A program made the translations under genes and the position numbers. Below are positions 17,995 to 30,917 of a DNA stretch of 64,000 bases, one piece after another (position 1 is the stretch's first letter; every line of letters starts with the position of its first letter). This DNA comes from Candidatus Cloacimonadales bacterium (GTDB lineage Bacteria; Cloacimonadota; Cloacimonadia; Cloacimonadales; JAIOQZ01), in the NCBI GenBank assembly GCA_963662655.2, contig CAXXTU010000002.1, forward strand, positions 2,464,001 to 2,528,000. The letters run 5' to 3'. The notes under the pieces are model-generated. The model ran no database searches, was not told the origin of the DNA, and saw nothing but the letters and a program-made list of their open reading frames with translations.

Positions 17995-20205
17995 TCATTT
18001 CCTGTCTTTATTCATTGGAGAGGTCTCCACGAAATTCCCCAGAATGCGTTTCAACGCCCCGCTTTCGAACGATATCGTAAGCTTGGCGTTCTCCCCGGAC
18101 CCGTCGACGCTGAGAACCGTTCCCTTGCCGAACGTGTTGTGCAGTACCTTCTGTCCGATCTTGTAAAGCTTCTGCGATTCGAGAATCACGTTCGTTTTCT
18201 TCGGCGCATTCCCCCTGCCGGGAGAGGCCTTTGTCGGGCTCGCGGTCACCTCGTAGAAATCCGACCCGGCAAGCCTCAGGTATTTATTGTCCAGTTCCTT
18301 CAGGAATCGGCTCGGCAACACCGGCTCGATCGTGTTGTATTCACGGCGCCACCGGCTGTAACTCAGTTCCAGATGACGCTTCGCCCGGGTAATGGCAACA
18401 TAAAGCAAACGCCGTTCCTCTTCAAGCAATTTTTCTTCTTCCAGGTTCAGGCGATGCGGGATAAGTCCATCCCCCATTCCGCAGATAAACACATGGTCGA
18501 ACTCGAGTCCCTTGGCGTTGTGCATGGTCATGAGCTGTACAACGCCCCGCTCGTCGTCCGCATGATCCAGATCCGTCTGTAGCGTGACGTTTTGCAGGTA
18601 ATCGAGCAGAAGAGGAGGATTTTCGTTCTCGTCCAGATACTCTTCGGTGTACTCTCTGGAAGCGGCCATGATCTCTTTCAGGTTGTCGGCCCTCGTGGCG
18701 TCCTGGATGTCTCCCGTCGATTCATAGAGCGGAATCAGCTTGAGATCGCCGATGACCCGCTCGATGATCATCGCCGCGGAGTCCGTTTCCGCTGCGATTC
18801 TCCATCCCTCGATCATCTTCGCGAAATCGGATATCTGCTTCTTCGCCGAGGCTCCAAGCAGAGGATTGTAACCGACTTCCTGCACCGAGCGATAGAGCGT
18901 CACGCCATGCTTGATCGAGTAATCCAGCAATTTCCCGACACTCGTATTACCAATTTTCCGCGGCGGAAAATTGATGATACGAGCGAGACTCTCGCTGTCG
19001 TCGGGATTGACCAGCACGCGAAGATATGCCAGGATATCCTTGATCTCCTTCCGCTGGAAGAAGTTCACGCCACCCACAACGGTGTAGGAGATATTCCGCT
19101 TGGCAAATTCCTGCTCGATAACGCGCGACTGCGCGTTCGTGCGGAACAGCACAGCGATATCAGCAAGCGCGGTTTTGTTACGGATTTCTTCCACTCGATC
19201 CGCGATGAATTTCGCTTCCTTCCGCTCATCCTCGAAGATGGACATCGCCGGCTTCTCGCCCTCGCCCACATCCGTCCAGAGGTCCTTCTGATGCCTTCCC
19301 TGATTGTTCTTGATCAGGCTGTTCGCCAGGTCGAGAATGTTCTGGGTCGAGCGATAATTCTGCTCGAGGCGTATCGTTTTGACCTTCCCGTAATCGTCCT
19401 CGAAGCGCAGGATATTGCGCACGTCGGCTCCGCGCCATCCGTAAATGGCCTGATCGTCGTCCCCGACCACGCAGAGGTTCCCGTGGTCCTTCGCGAGCAG
19501 ATTGACGATCTTGAACTGCGCGTAGTTCGTGTCCTGGTACTCGTCGATCATGATGTATCGGAACTGCGACGCGTATTTCCTGCGGATGTCCTCGTGCTCG
19601 TCGAGCAAGTAGGCCATGCGTAGGAGGAGGTCGTCGAAATCGAGCGCGTTGTTCTTCACGAGGTCTTCCGTGTAAGCCTTGTAAATCTTGTGAAAGGTCT
19701 TCGTGTATGCGTTCTCGTCCTGGAATTCAAAGAATTCTTCCGGACGGATCAGGTTGTTCTTGTTCCGGCTGATCAGATTATGCACCTTGCCGGGCGGAAA
19801 TGCCTTGCTATCGATGTCCAGACGCTTGACAATCCGTTTGATCAACGTCTTCTGGTCGTCGGCGTCGTAGATGACAAAATTTGATTTGAAAGGCAACCGG
19901 TCGCTCTCGTAGCGGAGGATCCTCGCACAGATGCTGTGGAAGGTTCCCACCCAGAGATTGCGCGTCTGCAAATGAAAGGTTTCTTCCAGGCGATCGCGCA
20001 ATTCGCGCGCGGCCTTGTTGGTGAAGGTAACAATCAGGATGTTGTATGGGTTGACTCGCTTCTCGCGGATCAGCCAGGCGGCGCGATAGATCACGGAACG
20101 GGTTTTACCGCTCCCTGCGCCTGCAAGAACCAGGACAGGGCCTTCCGTTGCCTGTACCACTTCCTGCTGACGTTCGTTCAATCCCCGCAACAGCGGATTA
20201 CTCAA
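17995..20205 (-). CDS. pcrA: ATP-dependent DNA helicase PcrA/UvrD
   Basis: LAGAGSGKT, TFTNKAA, IDEYQDTN, VVGDDDQAIY, LEQNYRS, EERRLLYVAITRA; C-terminal Tudor-like domain. Confidence 0.96.
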   Translation of the reverse strand: MSNPLLRGLNERQQEVVQATEGPVLVLAGAGSGKTRSVIYRAAWLIREKRVNPYNILIVTFTNKAARELRDRLEETFHLQTRNLWVGTFHSICARILRYESDRLPFKSNFVIYDADDQKTLIKRIVKRLDIDSKAFPPGKVHNLISRNKNNLIRPEEFFEFQDENAYTKTFHKIYKAYTEDLVKNNALDFDDLLLRMAYLLDEHEDIRRKYASQFRYIMIDEYQDTNYAQFKIVNLLAKDHGNLCVVGDDDQAIYGWRGADVRNILRFEDDYGKVKTIRLEQNYRSTQNILDLANSLIKNNQGRHQKDLWTDVGEGEKPAMSIFEDERKEAKFIADRVEEIRNKTALADIAVLFRTNAQSRVIEQEFAKRNISYTVVGGVNFFQRKEIKDILAYLRVLVNPDDSESLARIINFPPRKIGNTSVGKLLDYSIKHGVTLYRSVQEVGYNPLLGASAKKQISDFAKMIEGWRIAAETDSAAMIIERVIGDLKLIPLYESTGDIQDATRADNLKEIMAASREYTEEYLDENENPPLLLDYLQNVTLQTDLDHADDERGVVQLMTMHNAKGLEFDHVFICGMGDGLIPHRLNLEEEKLLEEERRLLYVAITRAKRHLELSYSRWRREYNTIEPVLPSRFLKELDNKYLRLAGSDFYEVTASPTKASPGRGNAPKKTNVILESQKLYKIGQKVLHNTFGKGTVLSVDGSGENAKLTISFESGALKRILGNFVETSPMNKDRK

Positions 20206-26570: not shown

Positions 26571-26990
26571 TTACTGCTGAGAATCCAGAATAATTGTGAG
26601 GATGTTCTTGCCGTTATCGTGCTTGTAGCTCATCTCGCGTGAGAACTGCTTCACGAGGTGGATGCCCAATCCCCCTACAGAGCGCTCCTCGATCGAGGCT
26701 TCGGTATCCGGTTCTTGTGCGGAGAGCGGATCAAACGGTGCAGCGTCGTCTTCCAGCCGAACAACGATATACTCATCGCCAAGCGTGACGTCCACCCCAA
26801 TCTCGTGATTGTTTGCATCGCGATAACCGTAGTTGATGATGTTGGTTATCATCTCATCGAAGATCAGGTTGATGTTGAATGCAACGCGGGGGTTGACATG
26901 GTTCTCCAGCACAAAGCCCTCGAAGGCATCCGCAAGCGGCGCAAGCTCTTCCAATCGATTGCCCAAGCGCCAGGTGAATTTCTTTTCCAT
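26571..26990 (-). CDS. RsbW-like anti-sigma factor / HATPase protein
   Basis: DEMITNIINYG, EDDAAPFDP, GGLGIHLVK. Confidence 0.88.
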   Translation of the reverse strand: MEKKFTWRLGNRLEELAPLADAFEGFVLENHVNPRVAFNINLIFDEMITNIINYGYRDANNHEIGVDVTLGDEYIVVRLEDDAAPFDPLSAQEPDTEASIEERSVGGLGIHLVKQFSREMSYKHDNGKNILTIILDSQQ

Positions 26991-27085
26991 CGCATCCTCG
27001 GTTAAACTCGGTTCGTTCACAGGTTGCCCAACTTGCCTGAGGATGTCAATGAAAAGGTGTTCTGTATCATAGATATAATTAAGGC

Positions 27086-29863
27086 TTATTCTCCTTCTTG
27101 TACTTTTTTCTTCATCATTTCGATCGAATTCCGGTCGAGTGTCGTATTGACATAGTCTTCAGCCTTGATACCCTGAATCTCCCATATTTTCTGGCGCATC
27201 AGCTGGGAGGTTCTGGATTCCTTTATAAAAACTTCACCAACAGAGTTAGTATAAGAATCCGACGACTCAGGAACAAACAAATCCTTGTCCCATTTTTTAT
27301 CCGTGCGATCAGTTCGACCCGTTCTTTCTCCATGGTTTAATCTCGGGACGTACGATAATGATGAGTGCGACGGCTCGTTCTCCAGACGGTCACAGTAGAA
27401 AGCATACATATCCTGCCCTTGATGAGGATTTCCATCGAGTGGCCACTTCTCTCGCCACGCATACACAATGTTATCTGCTAAAACATTCATTTGTTGTGAT
27501 ACTTCCGCACTTGCCGGGCCTGTAAATACCGCCCTTATCGCCCACTTATTCCTCAGATAATCGATAAGTGCCGGCAAGAAAAAACGATCCTGAGCAAAAA
27601 ACGGAAATCTTTCTGAAATCTGCTGAAGATCCCAGAAGACGATCCTCTGAATATGTTTCCCTGTTCTTACGCCATTAATTAATCGATTATCTAACAGGAA
27701 AATGAACTCCTCGGGAGAGATGCAGCCTGGACGAAGCAGCAGAGAATGAACCTTTCCATAGCAGTTTTTTTGATTGTTACACTTCTCCATCTCACTTTTA
27801 TCCTTGTAACATACCCAACCACACAAGCTTGCCCGTTCCTTGTATAGTTCCGGTTTCATGTCCTGAAGACAGATCAGTAATCCATGTTCGCCTTTGATTG
27901 ATCCGTCTCTTAGAAAATCAAGCGAGGCTTGAAGCTTGAATGTATGGTGCGCTCCTAAAACTGCTGTTGTACTCCCGCGATGCGGCTCTCCGCCTAATAT
28001 TTTTTTCAAGAAAGAATAACTTTCCGGGTTCTTCCTCAATTGATTTGTCAGTAAATGATCAATACCCCTTGGATCGTTATAGTTTCTGCAATAGAAACAG
28101 TGTGGGTTATGAAAACTCCAGAAAAGTCCACAGTTGTTCTTATCATTTTTTTGATCATTATTCGGCTCATCTTCTTGTTCATCTGTAAATAGAGTCAAAT
28201 CAGTATAGTCCTGCAAAATACTCTCTTCGGAGTATTCAATATAGTCATCCAACTTGTCCAGCCTGTGAGTCCGATAATGTAATGAAGGGAACACCTGAAT
28301 GCCAGATTCACGAATCTTGTACTGATGCCATCCAAGAACACTCTGTTGAAAACGCGACTTCTCAATGCAAATACGATTTAAGTAGTAATTCTGCTGTTTT
28401 TTATGTTCTTTACCTTCTATCTGGATAACCATATCGGCCAGATAATCCAAGTTTTCGTGATGGTTCGTCTCATCTTCATAGATAATGATGGATATCCAGG
28501 CTCGTCTCCTTAAATAACGTACGATAAGCTGTGCATCGATATTGCGTCGAATATCAGCCGGGAAAGTATTCAAACCGTCAATTAGAATGGCTCGTTTTCG
28601 GAGAGGCACTTGCTTTGAAGCCTGGTTCTTATTCTCTGGTTCCTGCTCTTTTGTTTGAACTTGAGCTTGAGTTCCATCCTCTGGGCCATCTCCAAGCCAA
28701 TACATCATATCTGAAAGCCATGTGTCATAAGAGCAACTTTCTGACTGGGAATTTTCCGTCTCAAGCGTTTCGATTTCTTTCAGCATGCTTCGAATATCGG
28801 TATCGAATCTCTTTTCTATATACTCTTCGATCTTTCGATCAATGAAATCTTTTATATTTTTTGCTTCTGAATCATCCTGTTTACATAGCATCTCACAAAT
28901 GTAATCAATAATCTTGAAAGCCCAAGGATCAATGGACCTAATATCTGTCATGAGATGATTCTTAACTTTCTCTGCTATTTTGGGGTATTCTCTCTTAGTA
29001 TTATTTTGCATATCATCAAACATGCAATCAAGGAAACTACAAAAAACATCCCTTCTTGAGACAATAATCTCACTAAGCTCGTTCTTTATCTCAAAAATCC
29101 TACTTGGTTTCCTCTTCCTCCTGCTATTCATACTCCTGCTGAAATATCCAACAATCTTTCGCTTTTGACTCGTAAAAGAGCTTTCCACCTTTTCAACTTT
29201 CCAATGATTAATATAGAAATCTACAATATCCGCACGTTTTGATGAGTCATATTCATATATAAACACTCCCAGCCAATAACATACAAACGTGAAGTACCAC
29301 TCTCGTAAATCATCACGACGATGTAGCCTTTTCATCAAATCAATAAACTCTTCTCTCTTTTGCTCGCAAGTGTAAACCCTTAGTTCCTTTGACTCGTTAA
29401 GAATATCGACAGTGTTCTGGATTTGATTTAAGAACGATGTGTCAGGATTGTATTTCTTTTGACATCTGAGAGGTTTATCACTTTCATGCAGGGCATCACT
29501 CTTGTTGCATTCAAGAATCCCCATCAGCATTTGCGTGGCGAACGTAGTCTTTCCCGTTCCAGGCTTACCTTTTATCAGAATAACCAGAGAGTCTGTATCA
29601 TACTTACTTTCTTTTACCACAGCTTCCGAATTATTGCCACCTTGAGGTTCTTGATTATCCCTGTTATCCCTAGTGTATTCCCGCTTCAAGAAGAACGGCA
29701 ACAACAAACCTCCGCGTAGAAGCTCATCGAATCCCATGATATTGGTCGGGATATATGGGCTTCTCTTCAATCGGCTAATCCTACTGATCCCCCGATAGTA
29801 GTTTCTCATTCTCCTGTAAATATCTTCAGCGTCAATAGTAGTATTCCCAACTTTATTTGCCAT
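27086..29863 (-). CDS. Double-domain KaiC-like (RecA superfamily) ATPase with large insertion
   Basis: TNIMGFDELLRGG, Walker A GKPGTGKT (29546-29569), YTCEQ, Walker B AILIDG (28574-28591), DYLADMVI, ICIEKSR...GIQVFP; second domain with degenerate P-loop GAHHTFK (27935-27955); GGGGGAGG RBS. Confidence 0.8.
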   Translation of the reverse strand: MANKVGNTTIDAEDIYRRMRNYYRGISRISRLKRSPYIPTNIMGFDELLRGGLLLPFFLKREYTRDNRDNQEPQGGNNSEAVVKESKYDTDSLVILIKGKPGTGKTTFATQMLMGILECNKSDALHESDKPLRCQKKYNPDTSFLNQIQNTVDILNESKELRVYTCEQKREEFIDLMKRLHRRDDLREWYFTFVCYWLGVFIYEYDSSKRADIVDFYINHWKVEKVESSFTSQKRKIVGYFSRSMNSRRKRKPSRIFEIKNELSEIIVSRRDVFCSFLDCMFDDMQNNTKREYPKIAEKVKNHLMTDIRSIDPWAFKIIDYICEMLCKQDDSEAKNIKDFIDRKIEEYIEKRFDTDIRSMLKEIETLETENSQSESCSYDTWLSDMMYWLGDGPEDGTQAQVQTKEQEPENKNQASKQVPLRKRAILIDGLNTFPADIRRNIDAQLIVRYLRRRAWISIIIYEDETNHHENLDYLADMVIQIEGKEHKKQQNYYLNRICIEKSRFQQSVLGWHQYKIRESGIQVFPSLHYRTHRLDKLDDYIEYSEESILQDYTDLTLFTDEQEDEPNNDQKNDKNNCGLFWSFHNPHCFYCRNYNDPRGIDHLLTNQLRKNPESYSFLKKILGGEPHRGSTTAVLGAHHTFKLQASLDFLRDGSIKGEHGLLICLQDMKPELYKERASLCGWVCYKDKSEMEKCNNQKNCYGKVHSLLLRPGCISPEEFIFLLDNRLINGVRTGKHIQRIVFWDLQQISERFPFFAQDRFFLPALIDYLRNKWAIRAVFTGPASAEVSQQMNVLADNIVYAWREKWPLDGNPHQGQDMYAFYCDRLENEPSHSSLSYVPRLNHGERTGRTDRTDKKWDKDLFVPESSDSYTNSVGEVFIKESRTSQLMRQKIWEIQGIKAEDYVNTTLDRNSIEMMKKKVQEGE

Positions 29864-30917
29864 TTTTGCCTCCCCCGTCAAGTATCTCTGCCAAGTTTTC
29901 TAGCAATTCTTTAATATCTTTGAAAGTATTCTCCGTGATGAGATTAATGCCCACACTGCGGAAGTGCTGGCCTAAAATTTCCTTGCAAGCAGTCTTGTTA
30001 TCCTCTGTAACAGGCTTGCGATCATATACCATTATATAATCTTCAGATAGATGCTTTCGATTGTATTGAACGATATCATTTTCCAAAGCCATAATTTGAT
30101 AAATATCAGGATTGTCACAGTACTCCTTGTTGGTTGAGAGGAGCCGGAGCATGTTGATATCAGTAAGTGAGGCCCCCAAAAAGATGCAGATACTTTGCTG
30201 CAAATGATAAAGCTGCGTTGAGACCTGCCAGGTATGGTGTTCCCGGATAAATCGATGATATTCTTCCAGGCTGAAAACAATATCCTGATCCAGCGATGAG
30301 AGCATCGGCGACACCCAGGGAAGATAGCCGTGAACATGATAGATCGGAAGTTCACCATACGCAAGGGACTCCCTCTCTTCTCGATAGATCGTACGGTACC
30401 TTCTTCCGCTTCTCCTGCTACCCCGTTTTTTACAGTAACCGCGGAGGCACTGTTCGAGAAGATCGTCCCAATTGTACGTGATAACGGCTCCAACTCGATT
30501 ACTCTGGCATAGCTCGGATAAAGGCTTAACGTAGCATTCACCATCATCGAGCATCGAAGGTGTATAGCTTGAATATAGTCCATCATGCACAAGCGCGCTA
30601 TAACGGCTCTTCAGGGCTGTACTGATTATGTTTGCCTTATCATATACCGTTAGTCGATCATCCATCCATGCAACAATCTCATCAAGATTGCCAAACGAAC
30701 AGCCCTTACTGCCCAAGTAGGTTACAAGCGCTTTCTTGAGAAGCTTACCAAGCATCTCGCTCCAGCGCGGTAAACCGCTCGGATTAATCCCGGCGCCAAG
30801 AAAGAGGGTGATCGGTTTTTTTATAGTCCGAATCCGAGTTAAAAAATCTTCTGAATTGATTTCTCTACCTGAAAATCCCTTATCGCAATACTCGTCAAAA
30901 TCCTTTGTTACTCTCAT
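29853..30917 (-). CDS. SIR2-family (SIR2_2-type) protein, putative NADase
   Basis: LFLGAGIN..LPRW (30783-30797), ITYNWDDLLE (30465-30479), YHVHG (30327-30338), IFLGASLTD. Confidence 0.88.
   Translation of the reverse strand: MRVTKDFDEYCDKGFSGREINSEDFLTRIRTIKKPITLFLGAGINPSGLPRWSEMLGKLLKKALVTYLGSKGCSFGNLDEIVAWMDDRLTVYDKANIISTALKSRYSALVHDGLYSSYTPSMLDDGECYVKPLSELCQSNRVGAVITYNWDDLLEQCLRGYCKKRGSRRSGRRYRTIYREERESLAYGELPIYHVHGYLPWVSPMLSSLDQDIVFSLEEYHRFIREHHTWQVSTQLYHLQQSICIFLGASLTDINMLRLLSTNKEYCDNPDIYQIMALENDIVQYNRKHLSEDYIMVYDRKPVTEDNKTACKEILGQHFRSVGINLITENTFKDIKELLENLAEILDGGGKNGK

Follow-up and report, generated by a model that had tools for sequence, protein, structure and literature searches.

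What might a SIR2 gene be doing in tight linkage with a gene for a KaiC-like ATPase, and could the two form a system of their own? We took up this question for a pair of minus-strand genes at positions 27086 to 30917 of a 64,000-nucleotide stretch (here called the window) from a Candidatus Cloacimonadales bacterium (NCBI GenBank assembly GCA_963662655.2, contig CAXXTU010000002.1, positions 2,464,001 to 2,528,000 of the forward strand). An earlier reading of the letters alone (the original prediction) had put the pair forward as an undescribed defense system. Our analysis suggests that the two genes constitute a horizontally moving abortive-infection (anti-phage) module in which a KaiC-type sensor is joined to swappable effectors, a reading to which we assign a probability of about 0.55. 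Some role against phages or mobile genetic elements is, in our view, fairly probable.

The first gene encodes a SIR2 protein of 354 amino acids (30917-29853, minus strand, with its stop codon at 29855-29853), and the second encodes an ATPase of 925 amino acids with a tandem KaiC fold (29863-27086, minus strand, with the ATG at 29863 and the stop codon ending at 27086). The two open reading frames overlap by 11 nt (29853-29863), and a Shine-Dalgarno-like sequence, GGGGGAGG, lies inside the SIR2 gene (29876-29869, minus strand), 5 nt ahead of the ATPase ATG. The overlap, the stop and start positions, the ribosome-binding motif, and the GAG, T.N.D, and HG motifs of the SIR2 (described below) had all been given in the original prediction, and these coordinates and motifs proved correct.

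This arrangement recurs far beyond the window. Loci were retrieved with ATPase queries only, the SIR2 playing no part in retrieval, and the ATPases were divided into an intact and a degenerate clade by motifs and profile scores rather than by a tree. A same-strand SIR2 gene was found directly upstream in 32 of 36 intact-clade loci; of the four misses, three come from contigs whose sequence begins within the ATPase gene, and the fourth (L059) holds ATPase fragments without a SIR2. After the subtraction of these three contigs and of five duplicates (L042, L045, L050, L053, and L054), 28 distinct and informative loci remained, and 27 of them had the SIR2 gene directly upstream, bearing out the expectation that homologues of the two genes co-occur. 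Another five pairs of a SIR2 and an ATPase protein were matched through longest contigs of identical length. The paired loci span about 11 phyla, the host phylum among them; judged from record titles, the other ten are Planctomycetota, Hydrogenedentota, Nitrospirota, Omnitrophota, Myxococcota, Bacillota, Verrucomicrobiota, Calditrichota, Spirochaetota, and Bacteroidota. The SIR2 and ATPase trees of 24 pairs were congruent (r = 0.73; Mantel p = 1e-4), which points to joint inheritance and not to contact. In the SIR2 tree, the 24 verified partners and 12 top matches fell on one side of a split (support, 0.76) that held none of 39 other SIR2 matches (a subsample of the 120 listed).

The family is also scarce. 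At E values up to 1e-30 it comprises 363 representatives in a library clustered at 50% identity, and within the host's own phylum the ATPase was found in 4 of 232 genomes, a count that includes the window's own genome and one weak, distant match. It was absent from all seven other genomes of the same family (three congeners and four more). Three other groups that were sampled gave 2 of 401, 1 of 301, and 6 of 401 genomes, with the seed genome counted in each case. Such patchiness agrees with the earlier view that these are not vertically inherited core genes. Of 37 distinct loci whose flanks covered 2 kb or more, 33 had a cassette of lower G+C content than the flanks. In the window, the ATPase gene has 40.4% G+C and the SIR2 gene 44.3%, versus 54.4% for pcrA and 51.2% for the genome; the pair taken together (41.4%) falls in the lowest 0.5% of 3.8-kb windows on the main contig, and its G+C content at third codon positions is 0.42 to 0.47, versus 0.68 to 0.73 in four neighboring genes. 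The three 60-nt counts on which the original prediction had based its contrast (32, 37, and 63%) were exact, but they are extremes next to the whole-gene values of 40.4 to 54.4%. Frameshifted copies were seen at four loci (L036, L043, L046, and L059), through decay or assembly error. As judged from these comparisons, the two genes are inherited as a unit that is rare and patchy and appears to move between unrelated bacteria.

What kind of enzyme, then, is the SIR2? SIR2_2 is the sole Pfam domain in the protein (46.7 bits, against a cut-off of 24.5), and the complete partner SIR2s of other loci are single-domain proteins of about 300 to 400 amino acids. The protein carries GAG (41-43), TYNWD (N149 and D151), HVHG (H196), and G248-x-S250-x-x-D253 motifs; N149, D151, H196, G197, G248, S250, and D253 are invariant across 56 aligned rows, and N149, H196, and D253 line up with ThsA. 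No zinc-binding cysteine tetrad was found, and neither the alignment of 36 SIR2 rows nor that of 56 contains an invariant or nearly invariant cysteine. The structural model has a mean predicted local distance difference test (pLDDT) score of 86 and 7 β strands (the sheet membership of the strands was not checked separately). When it was compared by fold with 48,161 chains, the best match was ThsA (Z 23.3; root mean square deviation, 3.2; 269 residues aligned), followed by KomC (Z 22.3 and 21.8), Avs5 (18.8), and FAM118B (17.5), with the HerA-partner SIR2s (12.8 to 16.4) and deacylase sirtuins (14.8 at most) scoring lower. A profile built from 36 partner SIR2s had FAM118B, ThsA, KomC, and DSR2 as its top PDB matches, FAM118B being the best (E = 3e-17, near full length); single-sequence PDB searches gave nothing below an E value of 0.28. 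PADLOC reported weak ThsA and PDC-S25 matches, those to ThsA covering the SIR2 part alone.

The immune SIRim clade is described as having GxG and xxNxD motifs, a catalytic His, no zinc tetrad, and at least 7 β strands, and it is reported to be 12-fold enriched near anti-phage systems (10.1101/2024.09.18.613514). The window SIR2 fits this description in its motifs, catalytic His, lack of a zinc tetrad, and 7 strands. By sequence and model, the first gene encodes an immune-type SIR2 that stands alone and keeps its NADase residues, with a predicted NADase activity; the earlier assignment of the protein to the immune NADases is likewise favored by the profile and modeled-fold matches. Two further observations on SIR2 sequences may be mentioned here. 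The host genome contains a second SIR2_2-like gene (L066:6845-8557; G000:C2 about 2656800-2658550), which is fused to TPR-like repeats and whose repeated tail may reflect a frameshift. In a five-member cluster (P0188/P0279), the N-terminal half of SIR2 is fused to an ATPase without the first Walker A motif, in what looks, from the sequences, like an internal deletion spanning the SIR2-ATPase gene junction.

The partner was predicted to be KaiC-type and not HerA-type, and this held. The Pfam KaiC family (PF06745) matched the ATPase at 47.4 bits (cut-off, 26.6), and no match to HerA, HAS, or DUF87 was found in Pfam, PADLOC, or NCBIfam at E values up to 1. In a model with a pLDDT of 70.8 and a predicted template modeling score of 0.75, residues 33 to 890 align with residues 16 to 493 of full-length KaiC over 400 to 437 residues (Z of about 21). 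The Foldseek matches listed were all KaiC, and of the top fold matches overall nearly every one was KaiC or a KaiC-like protein; HerA was missing from the fold matches listed, which in itself excludes nothing. Searches of the ESM Atlas returned unnamed clusters together with KaiC/GvpD-like ones.

Two features that the original prediction had not contained emerged from this analysis: the protein has two KaiC domains of which only the first is intact, and a related clade appears to be ATPase dead. The first domain, CI (about residues 36 to 527; 28283-29758, minus strand), retains a Walker A motif (G99-K105-T106), E167, the Walker B residue D429, and K502-x-R504, which correspond to the catalytic Glu, Walker B, and arginine finger positions of RecA and KaiC ATPases. 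Among 78 rows selected for an intact CI Walker A motif, E167 is kept in 74, D429 in 78, K502 in 77, and R504 in 76, and with all its motifs intact CI is predicted to be ATPase competent. Between E167 and the Walker B motif lies an insertion (residues 170 to 420; 28604-29356, minus strand) that is modeled, with low confidence, as mostly helical; it is 251 residues long here and varies from 56 to 471 among 24 proteins, with no Pfam match at an E value of 0.01. We regard it as a candidate sensing surface and the likeliest surface for contact with a phage. Compact relatives of the ATPase have 560 to 650 amino acids. The size of the window protein is due to the variable insertion and a longer linker, so that "giant," as it had been called, describes lineage-specific insertions and not the family.

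The second domain, CII (about residues 615 to 890; 27194-28021, minus strand), is, by its motifs, a conserved pseudo-ATPase. Its P-loop (G637-AHHTF-K643, followed by L; consensus, GPRRTFKT) lacks the inner glycines, and the position of the catalytic Glu-Glu pair aligns with Asp-Asn. G637 and K643 are nevertheless present in all 119 aligned rows, even in those without CI motifs, and D745 (Walker B) is present in 114. CII also contains a loop bounded by cysteines (27761-27823, minus strand; C681 in 117 and C701 in 115 of the 119 rows), possibly a metal site. Of 78 intact-clade rows, 55 have Ser at position 793, and the window protein has Asn there; profile alignments with KaiC fell short of the region of the CII phosphorylation sites, and 793 is a candidate position for one. 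A degenerate-clade member of 1077 amino acids (P0210) repeats KaiC-like motifs in additional sequence at its N terminus.

The degenerate clade, found in Bacteroidales, bears directly on which part of the pair is fixed and which is exchanged. It is related to the intact ATPases (profile match probability, 100) and is without the CI Walker A motif, the catalytic Glu, and most arginine fingers, while the CII residues are kept. Five of its 12 loci (L037, L039, L064, L065, and L074) have an upstream SIR2 gene, and the remaining seven (L038, L040, L041, L072, L073, L075, and L076) have, directly downstream, a gene for a membrane protein instead; the two never occur together. At L040 the DNA available upstream is short, and L072 and L073 represent a single site in related genomes. 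Seven helices were predicted in each of three membrane proteins tested. This partner has 59 homologues (an example gene is L038:9168-10460), no Pfam family above the cut-off, and, in the ESM Atlas, subthreshold TMEM117 leads only. Abortive-infection systems typically show this kind of swap between an NADase and a membrane protein. From it we read the ring as a shared sensor or scaffold, with the partner as an effector that can be replaced. In gut Bacteroidaceae, the Bacteroidales versions were seen in 6 of 401 sampled genomes (seed included).

Several observations on other loci stand beside these. The Bacteroidales cassettes often lie in or beside loci for polysaccharide (capsule) biosynthesis (L037, L064, L072, L073, L074, and L075; neighbors partly read by eye). 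At L041:6700-7890, a DUF3825 protein is encoded directly upstream of the degenerate KaiC-like gene on the same strand, with low G+C content. A genome of the host's order (G052) has, at L018:5371-11640, a more distant KaiC-like protein of 1438 amino acids, with a long C-terminal extension that has no Pfam match, directly behind a protein of 646 amino acids with HD-like motifs (seen by eye; no Pfam match) that is encoded on the same strand in DNA of low G+C content; this may be a third kind of effector or belong to a different system.

How might such a module work? If the pair does act against phages or mobile genetic elements, we consider the following scheme reasonably likely. The KaiC-like protein would form a hexameric double ring, as suggested by its fold and by the conserved trans arginine finger, and the ring would bind the co-made SIR2 and hold it off in the healthy cell. 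An infection cue would then flip the ring, the likeliest cues being a phage protein touching the variable insertion or an altered nucleotide in the CII pocket. ATP at CI may serve as a checkpoint, as ATP is stated to do in type III Sir2-HerA (PMC13434337). Once released, the SIR2 would oligomerize and drain NAD+, and the infected cell would arrest. In Bacteroidales, a ring without CI ATPase motifs would drive either a SIR2 or the seven-helix membrane protein. Since no part is more conserved than CII, and one clade does without CI activity, we place the core function in CII and assign CI the role of a checkpoint; the proposal that the ring senses ATP status, taken as a family-wide rule, is weakened by that same ATPase-dead clade, which keeps the pairing or swaps the effector. 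By extension, the KaiC-type double ring, whose fold is familiar from circadian clocks and signaling, might represent a new class of bacterial immune sensor, in which CII reads the infection cue and triggers plug-in effectors (SIR2, the membrane protein, and perhaps the HD-type enzyme at L018), an idea that we put forward tentatively and rate at somewhat less than even odds.

An intrinsic-terminator-like hairpin with a T tail (31056-31028, minus strand; 13 pairs, 6 of them GC) marks the end of the upstream aminotransferase operon; the original prediction had likewise placed a strong terminator there. The hexamer TTGACA proposed as the pair's own promoter is present at 30985-30980, but the promoter scan paired no -10 box with it; the best σ70-like site (TGGAAA-17-TATAAT, 10 of 12 positions; 31015-30987, minus strand) is a candidate only, because the number of promoter-like sites in the region (11, versus 9.8 ± 3.0 in shuffles) shows no excess. 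Rfam gave no match between positions 20000 and 40000 of the window. Of the sequencing data sets listed as containing the locus, none was of RNA, and two, both from one study, were of the DNA type. Directly after the ATPase lies an anti-sigma-factor-like gene (HATPase_c_2, 26571-27049) with its own TTGACA at 27049-27044; we considered it as a third part of the cassette and rejected it, since it is located elsewhere in the congeners and does not trail the ATPase in relatives. The pair had been thought to interrupt a housekeeping gene order. However, in all three congeners searched, the sequences that border the pair on its left and on its right are found at separate places, and the genes after the aminotransferase differ there from those in the window; the pair sits at a synteny break, and the congeners offer no empty site. 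By eye, congeners have a DNA-methylase-like open reading frame two genes after the aminotransferase (L006:7282-7905) and a transposase-like one ahead of tyrS (L007:6063-7427), hinting that both flanks are variable sites.

Defense-type neighbors were identified at a minority of loci, counted without a matched background: a type IIG restriction-modification gene (L049), a DrmMI-like gene (L055), AAA_14 (L036), TPR-S and a cyclase (L017), DUF2971 (L074), and AAA proteins (L065). The cassettes of the related loci L035, L055, and L057 are followed by genes for DUF218, an uncharacterized protein, and FRG-NACHT; at L055, the DrmMI-like methylase lies upstream. At L017:9025-11000, genes for TPR-S and adenylate/guanylate cyclase-domain proteins immediately precede the SIR2 gene in the same orientation and may form another conflict module. 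An opposite-strand trio beside the cassette at L044:3627-7465 (P-loop kinase-like, NUDIX, and P-loop-like) is possibly a nucleotide-handling module.

A number of results count against the pair being a mobile abortive-infection module. No convincing flanking or att-like repeats were found at the cassette boundaries, and no integrase that would account for mobility was found at the window locus. PADLOC recognized only housekeeping paralogues among the 46 other window proteins, so there is no defense island here, and the 118 neighbors of relatives are mostly housekeeping genes, with clear defense-type genes at few loci; the signal of enrichment in defense islands, with the same caveat about background, is weaker than had been anticipated. 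No family member was found on viral contigs, where two loci matched the Walker A stretch alone, or on plasmids, where, of 17 records, the 15 listed were generic KaiC-like proteins of 22 to 27% identity. An unverified and unannotated bacteriophage record, MT835535.1 (L064), does carry a SIR2 and a degenerate KaiC-like gene, but we did not count it as phage carriage, since 16 kb of it resemble a Bacteroidales capsule locus. The ATPase fragments at L059 have no SIR2 upstream, the congruence of the two trees would be expected from cotransfer alone, and the profile with which SIR2s were tallied derives in large part from the partner SIR2s (the partner motifs, for their part, were read directly). 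Finally, KaiC-like proteins are described as signaling hubs, not as immune sensors (PMC13700489, citing Makarova 2017). When the compact pair of locus L021 was cofolded with alignments, the score was 0.00 and the verdict "no answer," with no controls, a result that weighs neither way.

Could the pair instead belong to a system that already has a name? It resembles Sir2-HerA (Nezha) in that a stand-alone SIR2 with catalytic Asn and His comes first and a RecA-type ring ATPase second; there, the SIR2 is activated by its partner (PMC11514289). It differs in that the partner has two KaiC domains in tandem, one of them intact and the other a pseudo-ATPase, and no HerA or HAS profile match, in that the SIR2 is nearer by fold to ThsA and KomC, and in the existence of ATPase-dead and membrane-effector versions. 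KomC of the Kongming system KomBC (Z 21.8 to 22.3) is another short, stand-alone SIR2 switched on by a nucleotide-binding partner, being activated by a nucleotide trigger, and its D194 is reported as an essential, immune-specific Asp (PMC13454610) whose counterpart, by motif spacing and not by alignment, probably is the invariant D253. Unlike in Kongming, however, no KomB purine nucleoside triphosphate pyrophosphatase or KomA signal enzyme lies beside the SIR2, the KaiC-like gene being its only conserved neighbor. ThsA of type I Thoeris is the best SIR2 fold match and its catalytic motifs align, but the SIR2 here is without a SLOG or Macro domain, and a TIR (ThsB) gene was found neither in the window nor among the neighbors of relatives. 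In DSR, Avs5, and SPARSA, the SIR2 carries a fused domain (a long sensor, STAND, or APAZ), whereas the partner SIR2s here are single-domain proteins. FAM118B/SIRanc, alike in profile and fold, is a single-domain, zinc-free sirtuin; by fold, ThsA and KomC score higher. PADLOC 2.0 (2023) contains no system that fits the pair, in keeping with the expectation that no complete named system would be hit, and we found no paper describing it, although supplementary candidate tables of large prediction studies could list it. That the pair is a divergent form of a system with an existing name or listing (Sir2-HerA/Nezha or an entry in such a table) has some footing in the age of the PADLOC version, in those supplements, and in the shared gene order and logic, HerA also being termed RecA-like (PMC11514289). 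The absence of a HerA or HAS profile match, the two-domain KaiC fold, the lower fold scores of the HerA-partner SIR2s, and the literature search speak against this, and we hold it to be quite improbable. A KaiC-based timer or clock with the SIR2 as its metabolic input or output is more doubtful by far. The CI-CII architecture and fold and the intact CI motifs are those of cyanobacterial KaiC, but CII is degenerate (without P-loop glycines or the Glu-Glu pair), CI has its large variable insertion, CII has its cysteine loop, and the protein is rare and patchy in bacteria, absent from close relatives, and tied to a dedicated SIR2 or membrane partner. There is also no match to kaiB (PF07689) in the host genome, which is 98.95% complete (a control genome was positive; kaiA was not searched). 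The module is real, conserved, and apparently unnamed; it would work like Sir2-HerA or KomBC but falls outside both, as well as outside Thoeris and KaiABC.

Two other explanations leave the pair unnamed and give it a different purpose. In a toxin-antitoxin or stress-dormancy system, a constitutive SIR2 NADase would be neutralized by the KaiC-like protein and would fire upon energy stress or loss of the cassette. Tight gene coupling, low G+C content, patchy spread, and housekeeping neighbors are all compatible with this, and an intact CI could read ATP/ADP. The putative antitoxin, however, would have 560 to 1290 amino acids and be encoded downstream, and usual antitoxins are unlike a large, downstream-encoded protein; moreover, the swap of SIR2 for a membrane protein and the hypervariable insertion better suit an arms race, and the pair was not found on plasmids. 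We judge this explanation rather unlikely. Alternatively, the KaiC-like protein could be a hub that controls, or is controlled by, an NAD-dependent modification (ADP-ribosylation or deacylation) carried out by the SIR2, or the SIR2 could make a signal of the ADP-ribose type, with no killing. Besides the signaling role accorded to KaiC-like proteins (as cited above), FAM118B, the top PDB profile match, is a weak, regulated NAD-processing enzyme (PMC12700824), and the frequent Ser at position 793 would fit, but the window protein has Asn there. The SIR2 is also without the zinc module for acyl-lysine substrates, its fold is nearer the NADases, no conserved sensor, regulator, or target gene occurs among the neighbors, and rarity and G+C contrast suit accessory conflict genes; signaling without killing seems to us unlikely.

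Gating of SIR2 NADases is known for HerA rings, STAND ATPases, Argonautes, and nucleotide signals; for a KaiC-type protein we found no such report in the literature. The pair of locus L021 (326 and about 570 amino acids) is a compact, testable system, and the presence of the Bacteroidales versions in gut Bacteroidaceae makes them testable in tractable hosts, besides revealing an unnamed family of membrane effectors. If the pair does defend against phage, KaiC would join the immune toolkit, and the evolution of the clock protein would be linked with immunity.

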